From Pseudorhodoplanes sinuspersici (GTDB lineage: Bacteria; Pseudomonadota; Alphaproteobacteria; Rhizobiales; Xanthobacteraceae): a DNA stretch of 64,000 nt. The notes below the pieces were generated by a model. It ran no database searches. It worked only from the letters and a program-made list of their open reading frames with translations, and was not told the origin of the DNA. Shown here piece by piece: positions 9,053 to 47,059 of the stretch; position 1 is the stretch's first letter; every line of letters starts with the position of its first letter. Location: positions 2,109 to 66,108 of the forward strand of contig CAMDXM010000001.1 in assembly GCA_945878025.1 (NCBI GenBank), written 5' to 3'. A program made the translations under genes and the position numbers.

Positions 9053-9132
9053 CCTGCCTCCGGCGCCGCGTGATCTTGATTTTTGGGTGCCGGGCGGCGC
9101 GGTCCGCACATTCCGCAAAAAAATACAAAGGT

Positions 9133-9228
9133 GGGAGGCTGACGAGCGACCCGAACCGGAGCTCGTTAGGGCTGCTTCCTTCCGGACCTGACCCGGTTGG
9201 CGAGTGGCTCGTCCACCGCCAACCTCCC
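9133..9228 (-). ncRNA. ffs: Signal recognition particle 4.5S RNA
   Basis: Minus strand contains the conserved domain IV GGTCAGGTCCGGAAGGAAGCAGCC, closed by GGGAGG/CCTCCC; canonical position upstream of dnaX. Confidence 0.97.
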
Positions 9229-42644: not shown

Positions 42645-43862
42645 TCAGTGCGACGCGTTCGCGGATGGCTCGCCCACCAGGTCGCGCCATCGTTGCGGCT
42701 GCGATGTGAGCCAGACCAGCCAGACATAAATCAGCGTCACGACGAAAGGCTTGGTCACGCGATCGACCGGAAAGCTGACGGAGAAACCCAGCACCAGCAC
42801 GGCGGCGATCAGCAGCCAGCCGCGGATATCCTGCGCATTGCGTCCGAACAGGGCGAAGGCAAGCGCGGTCAGGCCCGGGGTCAGGACAAAGAACGAGAGA
42901 TATTCGTTGCGCGGGCCGAACAGCGTGATGTAGCAGCCGCTCAGGATCAGGATCGCGAGCGGAAAAATCGTCCGGCCCTCGATCTTCGAAATCCGCCAGG
43001 CCAGCGCGAGCGTGCCGAACGCGGCGGCGAAGCGGATCGCGGTCGCGACATTCGGCGGCACGACGATGCGGAAGGTGTCGAGCATGGTCTGGAAATCGGC
43101 CTGATAGGGCCAGTCCGTCGGCATGACGTGCGCCATGAAGGAAAGCTTGAGCATCCAGGCTCTGTATTGCTCGGCCATGTAGGACCATTCGACCACCGCG
43201 AATGGCAAAAGAAATCCGGCGATCAACGCGCCGATCAAAGGCAAGCGCATGCGCGGCTGCACCGCCCCGCACAGAAGCAGCATGACGATGGCGAGCGGCT
43301 TCATCACCGCGGCAAGGAAAATCCAGAGCGACGCGAGATGCCAGCGGCCGCGCATCATCGCCGCCGCGGCGAGGATCATGCCGGAGGTCATCAGGATTTG
43401 CGCCTGGATGTATTTGAAATTGAACCATGCGGCGGGAATGTTAATGAGCAGCAAGATACCCGCAGCCGTCACCGCGCTGACCGAGCGCTTCCGCGGCAGC
43501 AGCGCATCGAGCAGTTTCACGCAGGCGAAGGTGAATACGCCCATCGCCAGCGTGATCATGATCCAGCCGGCGACGACCGGATCGAGCCGCAAGACCGGGA
43601 TGTAAATCAGCAGCGACGACGGCCAGTAATTGAACCCGTCAAGCGTGGTCGCGTCATAGAGCGGCTGCCGGGACCAGAGCCTGTTCGCAAAATCGAGATA
43701 GACGCTAAAGGTGGAACCGAAACGCTTCGGCCCGGTCTGCACCAGGATGGAGATGCAGAACACGATCCACGCCGCCCAGCCGACCCACGGATTCTTCGCG
43801 AACCACACCGCGATTTCGGAGGATCGCTTCGCAAAGGATGCGGCGACAGGATTATTCGGCAT
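42645..43862 (-). CDS. Polytopic membrane glycosyltransferase, GT87/DUF2029-like
   Basis: About 10 TM helices, PLYD...GFNY.P motif, K-P in TM, typical GT-C topology; start uncertain (43862/43940/43958). Confidence 0.7.
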   Translation of the reverse strand: MPNNPVAASFAKRSSEIAVWFAKNPWVGWAAWIVFCISILVQTGPKRFGSTFSVYLDFANRLWSRQPLYDATTLDGFNYWPSSLLIYIPVLRLDPVVAGWIMITLAMGVFTFACVKLLDALLPRKRSVSAVTAAGILLLINIPAAWFNFKYIQAQILMTSGMILAAAAMMRGRWHLASLWIFLAAVMKPLAIVMLLLCGAVQPRMRLPLIGALIAGFLLPFAVVEWSYMAEQYRAWMLKLSFMAHVMPTDWPYQADFQTMLDTFRIVVPPNVATAIRFAAAFGTLALAWRISKIEGRTIFPLAILILSGCYITLFGPRNEYLSFFVLTPGLTALAFALFGRNAQDIRGWLLIAAVLVLGFSVSFPVDRVTKPFVVTLIYVWLVWLTSQPQRWRDLVGEPSANASH

Positions 43863-43984
43863 TGGGGCCCCCGGTTCCGGCGCGCACCATAATCGGATTT
43901 TCCGGCTGGCGAAACGGCTCAATGAAATGCCGCGTTTCATGCCGATCCAAATTTTCAAACAGCCAAGTCTGCGACCGGCAAGCC

Positions 43985-44380
43985 TCGTCCGGTCTCGCGG
44001 GCGGTTTCCCGCCGGAGTTTTCCGGTCGCTTCTTCAGATTTGCGCTCCCTCAAAGAGGGAGCGGAGCGCCGTAACGGCGCGTATTCATCAATCGCGTGCT
44101 CCTGCGACAGAGCACGTGCCAGCCTTGCGATCGGCCAGCTCGCCTTACGGCGCTCCACTGCGGCGTTTGACGAACCTTGGTGCCCCACTTCCTTTGGTCC
44201 CGCCGGCGGCTTTCGCCGCTTGCAGGAAGGTGTAAGGGACATTGACCCTAGGCTTCATAATGAGCCCGGAGGCTGCCCTCCAAGGTCGCCCGGGAGTGTG
44301 ATTGCGAGTCACACGCGCGGGCGCCGCTCCCCATCCGCGCTCAGTTTCGCTCTGCAGAGCGCCCCTCAGCGAATGGGGAT
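43985..44380 (-). ncRNA. Candidate large structured RNA (unassigned family) or long 5' leader of the GT87 gene
   Basis: Multiple nested helices, GNRA loops and GU pairs favouring the minus strand, promoter at its 5' end; see findings. Confidence 0.55.
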
Positions 44381-44387
44381 GATTCGT

Positions 44388-44416
44388 AATATATACTGAA
44401 AGTAAAATTCAATCAA
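44388..44416 (-). promoter_or_regulatory. Putative sigma70 promoter driving the structured RNA
   Basis: (C)TTGATT-17nt-TATATT in an AT-rich patch; predicted start near 44380. Confidence 0.6.
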
Positions 44417-44450
44417 GAGATATTTAACGGTGGAGGCGCGAATTCTTCAC

Positions 44451-44497
44451 CTGTCATTCCGGGGCGCGGGCATTAGCCCGCGAGCCCGGAATGACAG
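44451..44497. repeat. Palindromic repeat family D, short copy
   Basis: 13-bp perfect IR CTGTCATTCCGGG/CCCGGAATGACAG. Confidence 0.85.
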
Positions 44498-44524
44498 TGA
44501 GAAAGGCGTCGATCGCCCGCCACA

Positions 44525-44549
44525 CGCAAGTCGGCCAGGCCGACTTGCG
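44525..44549. repeat. Single hairpin of repeat family B
   Basis: CGCAAGTCGGC-cag-GCCGACTTGCG. Confidence 0.7.
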
Positions 44550-44578
44550 CAGTCAAAATTGCGACGACATTTGAAATC

Positions 44579-47059
44579 CTATTGCCCGCGTGGCTTGACG
44601 CGCCGCGTCGGCATGGCCGAGGCGGGATCGTCCGGCCAGGGATGGCGCGGATAACGGCCCTTCATTTCCGATTTCACCGCCTGCCAGGAGCCGCCCCAGA
44701 AGCCCGGCAGATCGCGCGTCACCTGCACCGGCCGTTGCGCGGGCGACAGCAATTCGATCACCAGCGGCACGCGCCCGCCGGCGATGGACGGATGATGGCC
44801 GAGGCCAAACAATTCCTGCACACGAATGGAAATCGTCGGCCCCGCTTCGGCCGCGTAGTCGATCGCAGCCTGCGTACCCGTCGGCGCCTGGAAATGGGAG
44901 GGGGCTTCCTCGTCGAGACGGCGGCGCAGATTCCACGGCAACAGATTTGTGACCGCATTCCAGAGATCGTCCGCCGCGATGCCGGACAAAGCGGTCTTTC
45001 CATCGCATAAAGGCGTCAGCCATTCCTCCGGCCGTTCCGCAAGCGCGGCATCCGAAAGATCCGGCCATTCCTCGCCCTCGGCATTGCGCAAAAACATTTC
45101 ACGTTCGCGCCATTGCGACAGCGCCTTGGTCCAGGGCAAACGCGAAAGACCGAGCTTCACCACGCCCTCAGCCAGAATGCGCGCGGTTGACTCGTCCGGC
45201 TTCACCGCCACGATCTGCTCGGAGAGCGCGATCGCGTCGAGCCTGCGCGCCTTGCGCGCGCGCAACGACGCGCTCGCCGGATCGAAATTGACCTCGTCGC
45301 GGCTTTCGATCTCGTTCGCAAAGCGCTGCTCGATCTCGCTCACGGCAATCGGCGCGGCCAACAGAATGCGGCTTTGCGCGGCGGTGCCGGTCAGTTCGGC
45401 GACAACGATGAAGGGTTCGCGTGCGAGCGCCAAGGCCGGATCGATCTGCGCGCCGCGGCCGTTGGCGAGCTGAAATCCACCCGTCCCGCCGCCGCGATTG
45501 CGCGCAACGCGGTCGGGATAGGCGAGCGCCAATATGGCGCCGACCGACGGTCCGTCAGCGCTGTCTTTCTTGCCGCCGGCCTCTTCTGCTTCTTGCGCCC
45601 AGCGTTTCGCCATGCGTCGCGCGTCTTCGGCGCGGCCGGAGCGCTCGCGGCGGAATTGATCGAGGCGATGGGTCAAATCCACGTCGGTGCCGCCCAGGCC
45701 CCGTTCGCTCAGGATCGCCGCCATGTCGGCGGCGATGTTTCCCGCGCCCTCGCGTCCGGCATCCACGATCATACGGGCGAGGCGCGGTTGCAGCGGCAGC
45801 GCGCGCAGCTTGCGGCCCTCCTCGGTGATACGGCCATCGGCGTCGAGCGCGCTCAACGTTCGCAGCAGCGATTTCGCCTCGGTGAATGCCCCCTGTGGCG
45901 GGGGATCGAGAAACGAGAGCTTGGCCGGATCGTTCACGCCCCATTGCGCCAGATCGAGCGCGAAGGACGAAAGGTCGGCGGCGAGGATTTCCGGGCGCGC
46001 GAAGGGCTCAAGGCTCGCTGTTTCCGGCTCGTCCCAAAGCCGATAGCAAAAGCCAGGCTCGGTGCGACCCGCGCGTCCACGCCGCTGGTCGGCGGAGGCG
46101 CGCGAAACGCGCACGGTTTCAAGCCGCGTCAGCCCGACATCCGGCTCATAACGCGGCACGCGCGCGAGCCCGCAATCGATCACAATACGAACGCCCTCGA
46201 TGGTGAGCGAGGTTTCCGCGATGGAGGTTGCCAGCACGATCTTGCGTGTGCCCGGCCGCGCGGGCGAAATGGCGCGATCCTGCACGCTGGCGTCGAGCGC
46301 GCCGTAGAGCGAAACGATATCGACGGATTTGTCCTCGATGCGCTGTCTCAGCATTGTCTCGGTTCGCCGGATTTCGCCCGCGCCCGGAAGGAACACCAGC
46401 AGCGATCCGCCTTGCGCACGCAGCGCGCGCACAACGGCATCCGCGACCTGACGTTCTATTTGCGCGCGCGGATCGCGGCCGAGATAACTGGTTTCAACCG
46501 GAAAGGCGCGGCCTTCGCTTTCGATCACCGGAGCACCGCCCAGGAGCTTCGCCACGCGCGCGCCGTCGAGCGTCGCCGACATGACCAGAATTTTCAGATC
46601 CTCGCGCAAGCCCTGCTGCGCGTCGCGGGCAAGCGCCAGGCCGAGATCGGCATCGAGCGAGCGTTCATGGAATTCATCGAACAGCACGGCAGCAATGCCG
46701 GACAATTCCGGATCGCCGAGAATGAGGCGGGTGAAAATGCCTTCGGTCACGACTTCGATGCGGGTCGCACGCGATACCTTGGAACCAAAGCGCACACGCA
46801 AGCCCACGGTCTCGCCGACCTTCTCGCCTAAGGTCGCAGCCATGCGTTCGGCGGCGGCGCGCGCTGCGAGCCGGCGTGGCTCCAGCACGATGATTTTTTT
46901 GCCTTTGGTCCAAGTTTCTTGCGCAAGCACCAGCGGCACGCGCGTGGTCTTGCCCGCGCCCGGCGGCGCCACCAGCACGGCGGCATTCTGCTTGGCGAGC
47001 GCGCCGGTCAGTCGCGGCAGAACGGCGTCGATCGGAAGGGATGTGTCGAAGGTCGGCAT
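44579..47059 (-). CDS. hrpB: ATP-dependent RNA helicase HrpB
   Basis: APPGAGKTT, EPRRLAA, DEFHERS, MSATL, ATSIAETSLTI, QR.GRAGR, RYPRHPWP. Confidence 0.97.
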   Translation of the reverse strand: MPTFDTSLPIDAVLPRLTGALAKQNAAVLVAPPGAGKTTRVPLVLAQETWTKGKKIIVLEPRRLAARAAAERMAATLGEKVGETVGLRVRFGSKVSRATRIEVVTEGIFTRLILGDPELSGIAAVLFDEFHERSLDADLGLALARDAQQGLREDLKILVMSATLDGARVAKLLGGAPVIESEGRAFPVETSYLGRDPRAQIERQVADAVVRALRAQGGSLLVFLPGAGEIRRTETMLRQRIEDKSVDIVSLYGALDASVQDRAISPARPGTRKIVLATSIAETSLTIEGVRIVIDCGLARVPRYEPDVGLTRLETVRVSRASADQRRGRAGRTEPGFCYRLWDEPETASLEPFARPEILAADLSSFALDLAQWGVNDPAKLSFLDPPPQGAFTEAKSLLRTLSALDADGRITEEGRKLRALPLQPRLARMIVDAGREGAGNIAADMAAILSERGLGGTDVDLTHRLDQFRRERSGRAEDARRMAKRWAQEAEEAGGKKDSADGPSVGAILALAYPDRVARNRGGGTGGFQLANGRGAQIDPALALAREPFIVVAELTGTAAQSRILLAAPIAVSEIEQRFANEIESRDEVNFDPASASLRARKARRLDAIALSEQIVAVKPDESTARILAEGVVKLGLSRLPWTKALSQWREREMFLRNAEGEEWPDLSDAALAERPEEWLTPLCDGKTALSGIAADDLWNAVTNLLPWNLRRRLDEEAPSHFQAPTGTQAAIDYAAEAGPTISIRVQELFGLGHHPSIAGGRVPLVIELLSPAQRPVQVTRDLPGFWGGSWQAVKSEMKGRYPRHPWPDDPASAMPTRRVKPRGQ

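Follow-up and report, generated by a model that had tools for sequence, protein, structure and literature searches.

The dispersed repeats of bacteria are normally short palindromes or decayed insertion sequences, and large ornate RNAs are normally encoded by single-copy genes. One precedent is HEARO, a multicopy ornate RNA of then unknown function that was later recognized as the RNA guiding IscB, the Cas9 ancestor. Alphaproteobacteria also possess multicopy small RNAs with C/U-rich anti-Shine-Dalgarno (anti-SD) motifs, such as the alpha-r14/NfeR1 and CcsR “cuckoo” families. The repetitive extragenic palindromes (REPs) Br-REP1 and Br-REP2 of Bradyrhizobium have the consensus palindromes CCGGAATCTCGAGATTCCGG, or ATTCCGGG...CCCCGGAATGA (PMC5082802). 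Here, an element that combines the dispersal of a repeat with a large ornate RNA was analyzed in a stretch of 64,000 nucleotides from Pseudorhodoplanes sinuspersici (GCA_945878025.1, contig CAMDXM010000001.1, positions 2,109 to 66,108), which is called the window as a whole and is numbered from its first letter. The element lies on the minus strand between hrpB (minus, 44579-47059; HrpB_C and helicase domains) and a gene for a GT87 glycosyltransferase (minus, likely start 43862). With a probability of about three in four, it is a dispersed non-autonomous repeat of an uncultured Hyphomicrobiales lineage from soils and lakes, near Pseudorhodoplanes, in which each genome has tens to hundreds of copies, every one of them encoding an expressed structured RNA.

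A first-pass annotation of the window had proposed a large structured non-coding RNA with its own promoter at 43985-44416. This proposal was supported by covariation among homologues, by promoter hexamers in 20 of 20 distinct copies, by presence in metatranscriptomes and by the lack of a match in Rfam. The proposed interval lies inside the repeat, but the unit is wider, from ~44433 to 43941.

Genomic Dispersal and Copy Number

In soil and rhizosphere metagenomes, the ~490-bp unit (about 44433 to 43941) was surrounded by differing genes, with at least 30 unrelated contexts. When JGI metagenomes were scanned with a 20-mer, 37 loci were obtained, which were homologous to the window from ~44385 to 43942 with 70-82% identity by blastn. 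The flanks of these copies were mostly unrelated, and no recurring flanking protein family was observed. The neighbors that could be identified were ordinary genes, namely those for transketolase, a TAXI-type solute receptor, an HWE histidine kinase, DUF697, SPFH, YkuD, TetR, an ATP-dependent DNA ligase, ribosomal protein S2 and DusA. When contigs from public runs were aligned to the region, positions 44117-44167 were 100% identical in soil metatranscriptome contigs with differing flanks, and in the DNA runs over 100 short contigs of variant sequence matched 44052-44393 at a very high depth.

The survey of gene contexts that had been suggested with the first-pass annotation thus showed a multicopy unit in variable contexts, and therefore a “selfish structured RNA element” fitted best among the three options then considered, the other two being an ornate non-coding RNA and a long regulatory leader. 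A leader fixed upstream of GT87 had to be abandoned, as the unit was missing from this site in relatives and not one of the 37 copies from metagenomes adjoined GT87 or HrpB.

The copy number was calculated as the summed contig depth at the core divided by the single-copy depth. The single-copy reference in runs X17 and X20 was the small bacterial signal recognition particle (SRP) RNA, located in the window at 9131-9227 on the minus strand (Rfam RF00169, 56 bits). The values obtained were as follows:

Run X17 (8.3-Mb single-organism assembly): core 493 versus 5.4 for the SRP RNA contig, about 90x
Run X20: core 10,512 versus 46 for the SRP RNA contig, about 230x
Run X1 (lake metagenome with the exact sequence of the window): 150-516 across the element versus 9.5 in the flanks, 15-54x

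The summed depth in the DNA runs rose over 43970-44392, with a peak at 44128-44165. No second copy was detected within the 64-kb window by blastn or nhmmer, which agrees with a density of roughly one copy per 50-100 kb. The exact core 22-mer was present in one genome among 185,579 species representatives, an uncultured Hyphomicrobiales metagenome-assembled genome (MAG), with two hits located at contig ends, as expected because the repeat breaks assemblies. The host lineage was assigned from the HrpB homologues; the nearest named ones belonged to Pseudorhodoplanes MAGs (74-77% identity), and relatives with 87-92% identity were found in metagenomes only.

Some copies were shared between loci in part. 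The contigs of the pairs L005/L036, L013/L018 and L015/L030 had one flank and part of the element in common and were unrelated on the other side, and the pair L012/L017 was the mirror image of this arrangement. The shared flanks were 84-99% identical, and the switch point was situated inside the element. These half-shared loci reflect either ectopic recombination between copies, with the mosaics and synteny breaks that it leaves, or misjoining by the assembler at the repeat. Variants of the element in which 44071-44140 and stretches of the 3′ module are skipped were also present among the contigs of the DNA runs.

Insertion at the hrpB-GT87 Junction

The spacer between hrpB and GT87 in the window measures 717 nt. 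The unit was missing from this junction in four related contigs:

L046: GT87 90% identical to that of the window, hrpB-GT87 spacer of 53 nt
L001: GT87 83% identical, hrpB-GT87 spacer of 61 nt
L044: GT87 88% identical, spacer of 185 nt occupied by a REP-like palindrome
L002: GT87 62% identical, hrpB and GT87 overlapping

Since hrpB and GT87 are 53-61 nt apart or overlap in close relatives, the spacer of the window is an insertion and not a leader of GT87. These results showed that the unit was inserted into a formerly tight hrpB-GT87 junction. A cis-regulatory leader or riboswitch of GT87 was consequently ruled out by synteny, and the genes downstream of the other copies were unrelated to GT87. 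In the alignment with L046, the extra DNA of the window ran from ~44498 to 43903, and a 77-nt insert bearing a hairpin was found in addition directly after the stop codon of hrpB.

A full-length copy of a different subfamily occupied the same spacer in L042 and L043 (L042:663-1434), whose GT87 is 90% identical to that of the window. The body of this copy was 71% identical to the body in the window, the flanking 3′ end of hrpB was 94% identical, and the copy stood behind a different REP-like module (GGTGCCATCCACGTCTT type). The differences in subfamily and in REP-like module indicated that the hrpB-GT87 site had been colonised or overwritten more than once.

Other small sequences surround the element in the window. 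The 77-nt segment (44507-44578), absent from the empty site of L046, contains the hairpin CGCAAGTCGGCC-TG-GCCGACTTGCG (44525-44549) with no T-run after it, and appears to be a separate small insertion. At 43904-43940, after the element and before the point where similarity to the empty site resumes, there is a short inverted repeat, ATGAAA-CGCGGC-ATTTCAT, which is also extra with respect to L046. About 20 nt upstream of the element, at 44451-44497, lies an imperfect palindrome, CATTCCGGG...CCCCGGAATGA, that resembles the Br-REP2 consensus (PMC5082802). This palindrome is a widespread repeat itself and was present in dozens of contigs with differing flanks in every run examined.

Architecture of the Repeat Unit

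The boundaries of the unit were established from the blastn homology (44385-43942), from an alignment of 22 copies with their flanks and from contig depth. Its parts, all of them on the minus strand, are the following:

43941..44433, minus: whole repeat unit, ~490 bp, with the 5′ boundary near AAATATC and the 3′ boundary after GGATC(G/T)G
44386..44433, minus: promoter module, with an AT-rich UP-like stretch, a -35 box TTGATT (44416-44411), a 17-nt spacer, a -10 box TATATT (44393-44388) and 7 nt to the start
44052..44380, minus: structured RNA body, ~325 nt, with the predicted start at A44380 and a full-length nhmmer match at 44382-44052
44328..44379, minus: 5′ hairpin P1, AUCCCCAUUCG / CGGAUGGGGA, with a small inner hairpin at 44361-44348
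44160..44327, minus: central variable domain, closed by the long-range helix H4 and holding H5, H7, H8, H9, H10 and H11
44060..44159, minus: 3′ domain, in which the invariant 19-bp helix H12 encloses the variable H13 and H14 and a variable unpaired linker (~44093-44080)
44043..44064, minus: tail hairpin CGCUCCCUC-UUU-GAGGGAGCG, whose 5′ arm is the C/U-rich tail with the anti-SD-like CUCCCUC
43941..44042, minus: 3′ module, with a hairpin, a variable spacer and the terminal motif

The predicted promoter TTGATT-17-TATATT was confirmed at 44416..44388 on the minus strand, and it was the only sigma-70-like site detected by a promoter scan of 43600-44800, in which 0.2 sites were expected. In the 22-copy alignment, the UP-like stretch corresponded to AAATTTTACT and variants of it. 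The hexamers of the copies were TTGAC[AG] or TGGACG, followed after 16-17 nt by TATGGC, TAGATT, TATCTC or TATATT. They were placed 6-7 nt before the conserved start ATCCCC in all 20 distinct copies, and the sequences of the spacers differed among subfamilies. A GANTC motif (GAATC, GAGTC or GACTC), which is the CcrM methylation site of alphaproteobacteria, was situated directly before the predicted start in the window (44381-44385) and in L011, L015, L018, L023 and L030, although not in all copies.

The tail hairpin could be folded in the 40 copies examined (40/40), with compensatory GCUUCC / GGAAGC variants. The distal GGCGG-GAAA-CCGCC (44000-13) of the first-pass annotation corresponded to a conserved hairpin in the 3′ module, CUCCGGCGGGAAACCGCCCGCGAG (about 44021-43994), with the consensus CUCCGGCGG-AAA-CCGCC.GCGAG. 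The terminal motif GGCTGTTTGAAAATTTGGATC, at 43964-43944, had the consensus GGCTGTTTGA[AC]AAT.GGATC and invariably closed the unit, with a single occurrence at each locus, also in the divergent L020 subfamily; beyond it the copies diverged. The 3′ module ended in GGCTGTTTGACAATTGGATC in every copy, reached a depth ~38x that of the flank in run X1, and looks untranscribed. Other functions considered for the end of the unit were rejected. A hybrid outward promoter starting from the terminal TTGACA found no -10 box at the right distance in any flank, and the sigma-54 and extracytoplasmic function (ECF) promoter readings of the 3′ motif were a poor fit by eye.

A divergent subfamily, represented by L020:900-1180 and L037, had a body of 271 nt without most of the central domain. 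The promoter and the terminal GGCTGTTTGACAA motif were retained, as were a hairpin resembling P1 and the invariant helix, here enclosing three hairpins; this subfamily outlines the minimal conserved architecture. In other copies, two or three tandem hairpins of the tail type (GCUCC...GGGAGC) followed the body (L029 at ~380-520, L019, L041, L007, L023, L035 and L039), which indicated that the 3′ module expands by local duplication.

Conserved Fold of the RNA

The strong folding of the region was borne out, since the 401-nt minus strand reached -205.5 kcal/mol (z = -6.5 against dinucleotide shuffles), versus z = -5.1 for the plus strand. A total of 25 distinct bodies were aligned, and the resulting RNAalifold consensus of 97 pairs was evaluated by manual pair counts. 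In this model 90.5% of the cells were paired, and 36 of the 97 pairs changed on both sides (181 cells). The covariation score was 0.248 and decreased 3-4 times, to 0.05-0.08, when the partner was slid by 1-3 columns, and none of 500 column shuffles reached the observed values in any of the measures. Across the pairs there were 204 G·U versus 57 A·C combinations, an excess that identified the minus strand as the folded strand. These results showed that the fold has been conserved through compensatory changes. The helices of the minus strand are listed below:

P1, 44379-69 / 44338-28: well supported, 98% paired, with the covarying pairs CG18/UA7, AU15/GC8 and UA17/CG7
H4, long-range, 44327-22 / 44165-60: weaker, 76% paired, with pair 64-252 as CG10/UA6/UG3; closes the central domain
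H5, 44321-10 / 44300-289: well supported
H7, long-range, 44287-80 / 44180-73: well supported, 5/6 pairs changed on both sides
H9, 44266-62 / 44255-51: well supported, 4/5 pairs changed on both sides
H10, 44249-46 / 44237-34: well supported
H11, 44230-22 / 44199-91: well supported, 8/9 pairs changed on both sides
H12, 44159-41 / 44079-60: 15/19 pairs never vary; contains CGCC-GUAA-GGCG
H13, 44138-33 / 44124-19: well supported, covaries
H14, 44117-10 / 44101-094: well supported, covaries

The pairings proposed in the first-pass annotation were compared with this model. The helix ATCCCCATTCGC / GCGGATGGGG, which corresponds to P1 (44379-44369 / 44338-44328), proved to be real, with compensatory changes in the homologues. 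Such changes were equally found in GTGTGA/TCACAC, CTTCCT/AGGAAG and GTGCTC/GAGCAC, as well as in GCTGGCC/GGCTGGC, whose G·U pairs form on the minus strand only. The hairpin GCGGC-GAAA-GCCGC is present here but is peculiar to the copy of the window and lies in a variable region, and GGAGG-GCAG-CCTCC competes with a long-range helix, 44274-44268 / 44188-44181, that is formed also in copies without the local hairpin. The helix 44331-44320 / 44070-57, which had been considered to close the structure, was 88% paired, but it contained one covarying pair only and was not the best-supported helix. It competes with P1, H4 (44327-22 / 44165-60) and H12, and may be an alternative conformer.

The hairpin CGCC-GTAA-GGCG was found within the invariant helix H12, which is beyond the reach of the covariation test because 15 of its 19 pairs are invariant. 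H12 was almost invariant in every copy, the divergent L020 type included, and, on the alignment, this points to sequence-specific recognition rather than to mere pairing. The strands of H12 can also fold locally, with CGCC-GUAA-GGCG as a GNRA hairpin, and L042 has GGAA at this position. As to the exclusive pairings that had been compared to a switch, one G-to-A change in one subfamily (alignment column 58) was compensated in P1, in the closing helix and in the tail hairpin. The RNA could thus pair in alternative ways, with this single subfamily event as the support.

Non-coding Nature and Expression of the Element

The earlier statement that the region holds no credible open reading frame (ORF) was correct, as the ORFs of 95 aa (minus) and 119 aa (plus) had no match in Pfam. 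The gap runs of the alignment were mostly not multiples of three (357/382) and no frame was conserved between copies; hence, the element is non-coding. A protein-coding reading was rejected on the absence of Pfam matches, and the peptide-like strings, such as “WLFDNWI”, merely mirrored the conservation of the DNA.

The element is transcribed in nature, and its sequence was found in many metatranscriptomes from soil, rhizosphere, plants and decaying wood. In run X26, an RNA contig of 312 nt with a depth of 24x covered the body and ended at 44055 directly in the Illumina adapter, which indicated that many cDNA inserts ended there. In run X35, an RNA contig of 259 nt and 52x ended at the equivalent position of L011. 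The RNA contigs of high depth stopped short of the 3′ module and, mostly, of the promoter.

The absence of the element from the known RNA families (among them RNase P, tmRNA, 6S, SRP, HEARO, riboswitches, self-cleaving ribozymes and BjrC small RNAs) was maintained at every threshold used with Rfam 15. No match was obtained in the element when the window was searched at the gathering score and the region at E up to 10. Other copies were equally negative, both 12 of them at the gathering score and, with E raised to 5, representatives of 3 subfamilies. The window contained no tRNA or tmRNA, and the element had no match in the PLSDB plasmids (distant blastn mode) or in the IMG/VR viral contigs. 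The core sequence was not found in the searchable literature, where keyword searching gave only Br-REP1/2, which are different elements. A loose likeness of the core to 5S rRNA (AACGCCG.AG..GCGCCG, GGUCCCACC) was discarded, since the 5S covariance model gave no match, even a weak one.

Proposed Mode of Spread and Alternative Explanations

In the proposed mechanism, each copy would be a self-contained transcription unit formed by an UP-like element and a sigma-70 promoter, a ~325-nt RNA and a 3′ DNA module. Judging from the sequence of the copies, it is fairly safe to propose that the element spreads as DNA, because both the promoter, which precedes the predicted RNA start, and the module beyond the observed 3′ end of the RNA are copied with the unit. 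A “master copy” logic, as for short interspersed nuclear elements (SINEs) and transposon-encoded guide RNAs, would apply if the copies with a working RNA alone propagate. It is plausible, although far from secure, that the promoter and the fold were kept across subfamilies since only the copies making a functional RNA propagate, this RNA serving a trans-encoded recombinase or nuclease as cofactor, scaffold or guide, with H12 as the site recognized by the enzyme. A bolder and more tentative proposal, whose probability is nevertheless substantial, is that the element represents a new RNA-dependent system of mobility or regulation, and a new class of bacterial selfish elements with a complex, promoter-bearing RNA as the only “gene”. 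This RNA would be the obligatory scaffold or guide of a recombinase or nuclease encoded elsewhere, which would recognize H12 and the terminal GGCTGTTTGACAATTGGATC and thereby copy or retain the DNA unit, as in a bacterial SINE mobilised through DNA. The ~100 copies might also rewire transcription upstream of many genes.

Several observations weigh against the element being a dispersed repeat that carries an expressed RNA and spreads in this way. The distribution described rests on metagenomes, Logan contigs and coded run labels, because the core 22-mer was present in only one MAG among 185,579 species. The RNA evidence consists of unstranded assembled Logan contigs, whose ends can reflect branching at the repeat and not the ends of an RNA. 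Furthermore, the tail hairpin is conserved past the apparent 3′ end at 44055, so the 3′ end of the RNA may be further on or arise by processing. The 5′ edge of the unit is less sharp than the 3′ edge, with differing REP-like modules upstream in differing subfamilies. No target-site duplication was visible when the filled site of the window was compared with the empty site of L046, a comparison in which the 5′ boundary is not sharp. No terminal inverted repeats were found, as AAATATC... at one end does not match ...GGCTGTTTGACAATTGGATC at the other in inverted orientation, and no transposase, recombinase or reverse transcriptase was found among the flanking genes of ~30 copies. Finally, pairing of a guide or bridge type with the flanks was rejected, given that the match test between RNA and flanks gave no signal. 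The longest match of the RNA with its own flanks versus those of other copies was 8.9 versus 8.25 nt upstream and 7.1 versus 7.4 nt downstream (n=9, a crude test), and this absence of copy-specific complementarity argues against a guide derived from the flank.

An unlikely alternative is that of a portable promoter with a regulated leader that acts in cis on the downstream gene, by which ~100 copies would put unrelated genes under one signal. The identified downstream genes (SPFH, YkuD, TetR, DNA ligase, rpsB, dusA and GT87) are co-oriented with the unit and begin 61-171 nt after its end, and in the window the insertion separates GT87 from hrpB, which are contiguous in relatives. Nevertheless, co-orientation is also expected from purifying selection against antisense transcription, and these genes have no common function. 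The exclusive pairings (P1, GGGGAGCGG with CCGCUCCCU, and the tail hairpin) would act as an attenuator-like switch, in agreement with the compensation of the change at column 58 in all three competing helices; however, this triple covariation is one event in one subfamily. Moreover, the RNA contigs of high depth stop at the tail and do not continue into the 3′ module, and the tail hairpin is not a canonical terminator because no U-tract follows it. Regulation in trans also seems doubtful. The copies would then be amplified regulatory or sponge RNAs serving the host, with the C/U-rich tail or the linker (~44093-44080) pairing with mRNAs, or with titration of a protein, and their spread as DNA would be incidental. 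The strong conserved promoter, the abundant RNA in metatranscriptomes (contig depth of 24-52x) and the invariant single-stranded and helical segments are consistent with this function, for which the multicopy C/U-rich anti-SD small RNAs of alphaproteobacteria are a precedent. Against it, ~100 copies would each be hard for host selection to maintain, and the presence or absence of the unit at a given site turns over between close relatives. Besides, the known base-pairing small RNAs are far simpler and have one third of the length of this RNA, which gave no Rfam match to their families.

The two remaining explanations have a low probability. In a repeat working purely at the DNA level, as REPs, bacterial interspersed mosaic elements (BIMEs) or miniature inverted-repeat transposable elements (MITEs) do, the palindromes would act as DNA or single-stranded DNA and the transcripts would be incidental. 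The mosaic and modular make-up of the unit (variants skipping 44071-44140 and 3′ module parts), the adjoining REP-like palindromes and the breakpoints inside the element between loci sharing one flank agree with such a repeat, and the invariant 19-bp inverted repeat could be a binding site for a protein on DNA. This explanation is nonetheless improbable, because the promoter hexamers keep a fixed distance to the conserved start while the spacer varies, the ratio of 204 G·U to 57 A·C indicates that a single strand was selected to fold, as for an RNA, the long-range helices covary, and the metatranscriptome contigs reach 24-52x. It is highly improbable that the element has diverged from within a catalogued RNA family (RNase P, tmRNA, 6S, HEARO/omega RNA, bridge RNA or BjrC small RNAs) or is a decayed protein-coding gene. 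The likeness to large ornate RNAs is merely a loose one in size and complexity, and four subfamilies gave no Rfam 15 match at the gathering score or at E up to 10. A decayed gene is contradicted by ORFs without Pfam matches, frames that are not conserved and indels that are not multiples of three.

The dispersed repeat encoding an expressed structured RNA was hence preferred. If the RNA is required for spread, the element would belong to a novel RNA-dependent system of DNA mobility or retention; with action in cis, it would exemplify how a mobile module builds a regulon in nature. Either way, it constitutes a new Rfam family, explains the fragmented assemblies of this lineage and marks breakpoints of genome rearrangement.

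Comparison with Known Systems

The HEARO/IscB omega RNA, the TnpB omega/reRNA and the IS110 bridge RNA resemble the RNA described here in being large structured RNAs on multicopy mobile elements with a covarying fold; their elements lack terminal inverted repeats, which were not found in this unit either, and IS110-type elements are often located beside REP sequences, as is this unit. In contrast to these systems, no nuclease or recombinase gene was found beside ~30 copies and there was no Rfam match, HEARO included. The guide of the IscB/TnpB omega RNAs extends into the flanking DNA, whereas the predicted start and the observed end of the present RNA lie inside the conserved unit. The IS110 bridge RNA belongs to an element with a DEDD recombinase gene, while the 490-bp unit has no ORF and no recurrent flanking protein; the loops of the bridge RNA are complementary to target flanks and donor ends, and no such match was obtained here in the crude test (n=9).

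The SINEs (Alu and tRNA-derived) are also high-copy and non-autonomous, with a promoter and a folded RNA in each copy and a fold that persists across subfamilies. They have an internal promoter and spread through RNA, whereas in this unit the promoter precedes the start of the RNA and is copied along with a 3′ module that looks untranscribed, which implies spread as DNA, and the poly-A or reverse-transcriptase signature of SINEs is absent. Among bacterial repeats, the MITEs, the BIME/RIME mosaics, Br-REP1/Br-REP2, the Correia elements and bcr1 are likewise intergenic, dispersed in tens to hundreds of copies, modular, transcribed and close to gene ends. The unit is short, non-coding, multicopy (~50-230x) and polymorphic in insertion (filled and empty sites among relatives), as MITEs are. 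Nevertheless, bacterial interspersed repeats measure 20-200 bp, in comparison with ~490 bp here, including a complete promoter with an UP-like element. The unit differs from them as well in its at least 12 helices, some of them long-range, which are supported by covariation, and in that no terminal inverted repeats or target duplication were found. The consensus palindromes of Br-REP1/Br-REP2 are absent from the element, and only the neighboring 44451-44497 resembles Br-REP2.

The alpha-r14/NfeR1, CcsR “cuckoo” and BjrC2 RNAs share with this RNA the presence of several copies, an own promoter and a C/U-rich anti-SD-like motif near a hairpin, but they have 80-150 nt and 2-10 copies at conserved loci, compared with ~325 nt and roughly 50-200 copies at unstable loci. 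OLE, GOLLD, ROOL and raiA are, like this RNA, longer than 300 nt and abundantly transcribed, with many covarying helices and invariant segments. These RNAs are single-copy or phage-borne and occur in other phyla; they are not dispersed repeats with a co-copied promoter, and their covariance models gave no match. The element thus lacks the defining features that could be tested of each of its analogues, that is, of the HEARO/IscB omega RNA, the SINEs and the bacterial repeats. What is new here is an uncatalogued, dispersed and non-autonomous repeat that carries the complete gene of an ornate RNA.

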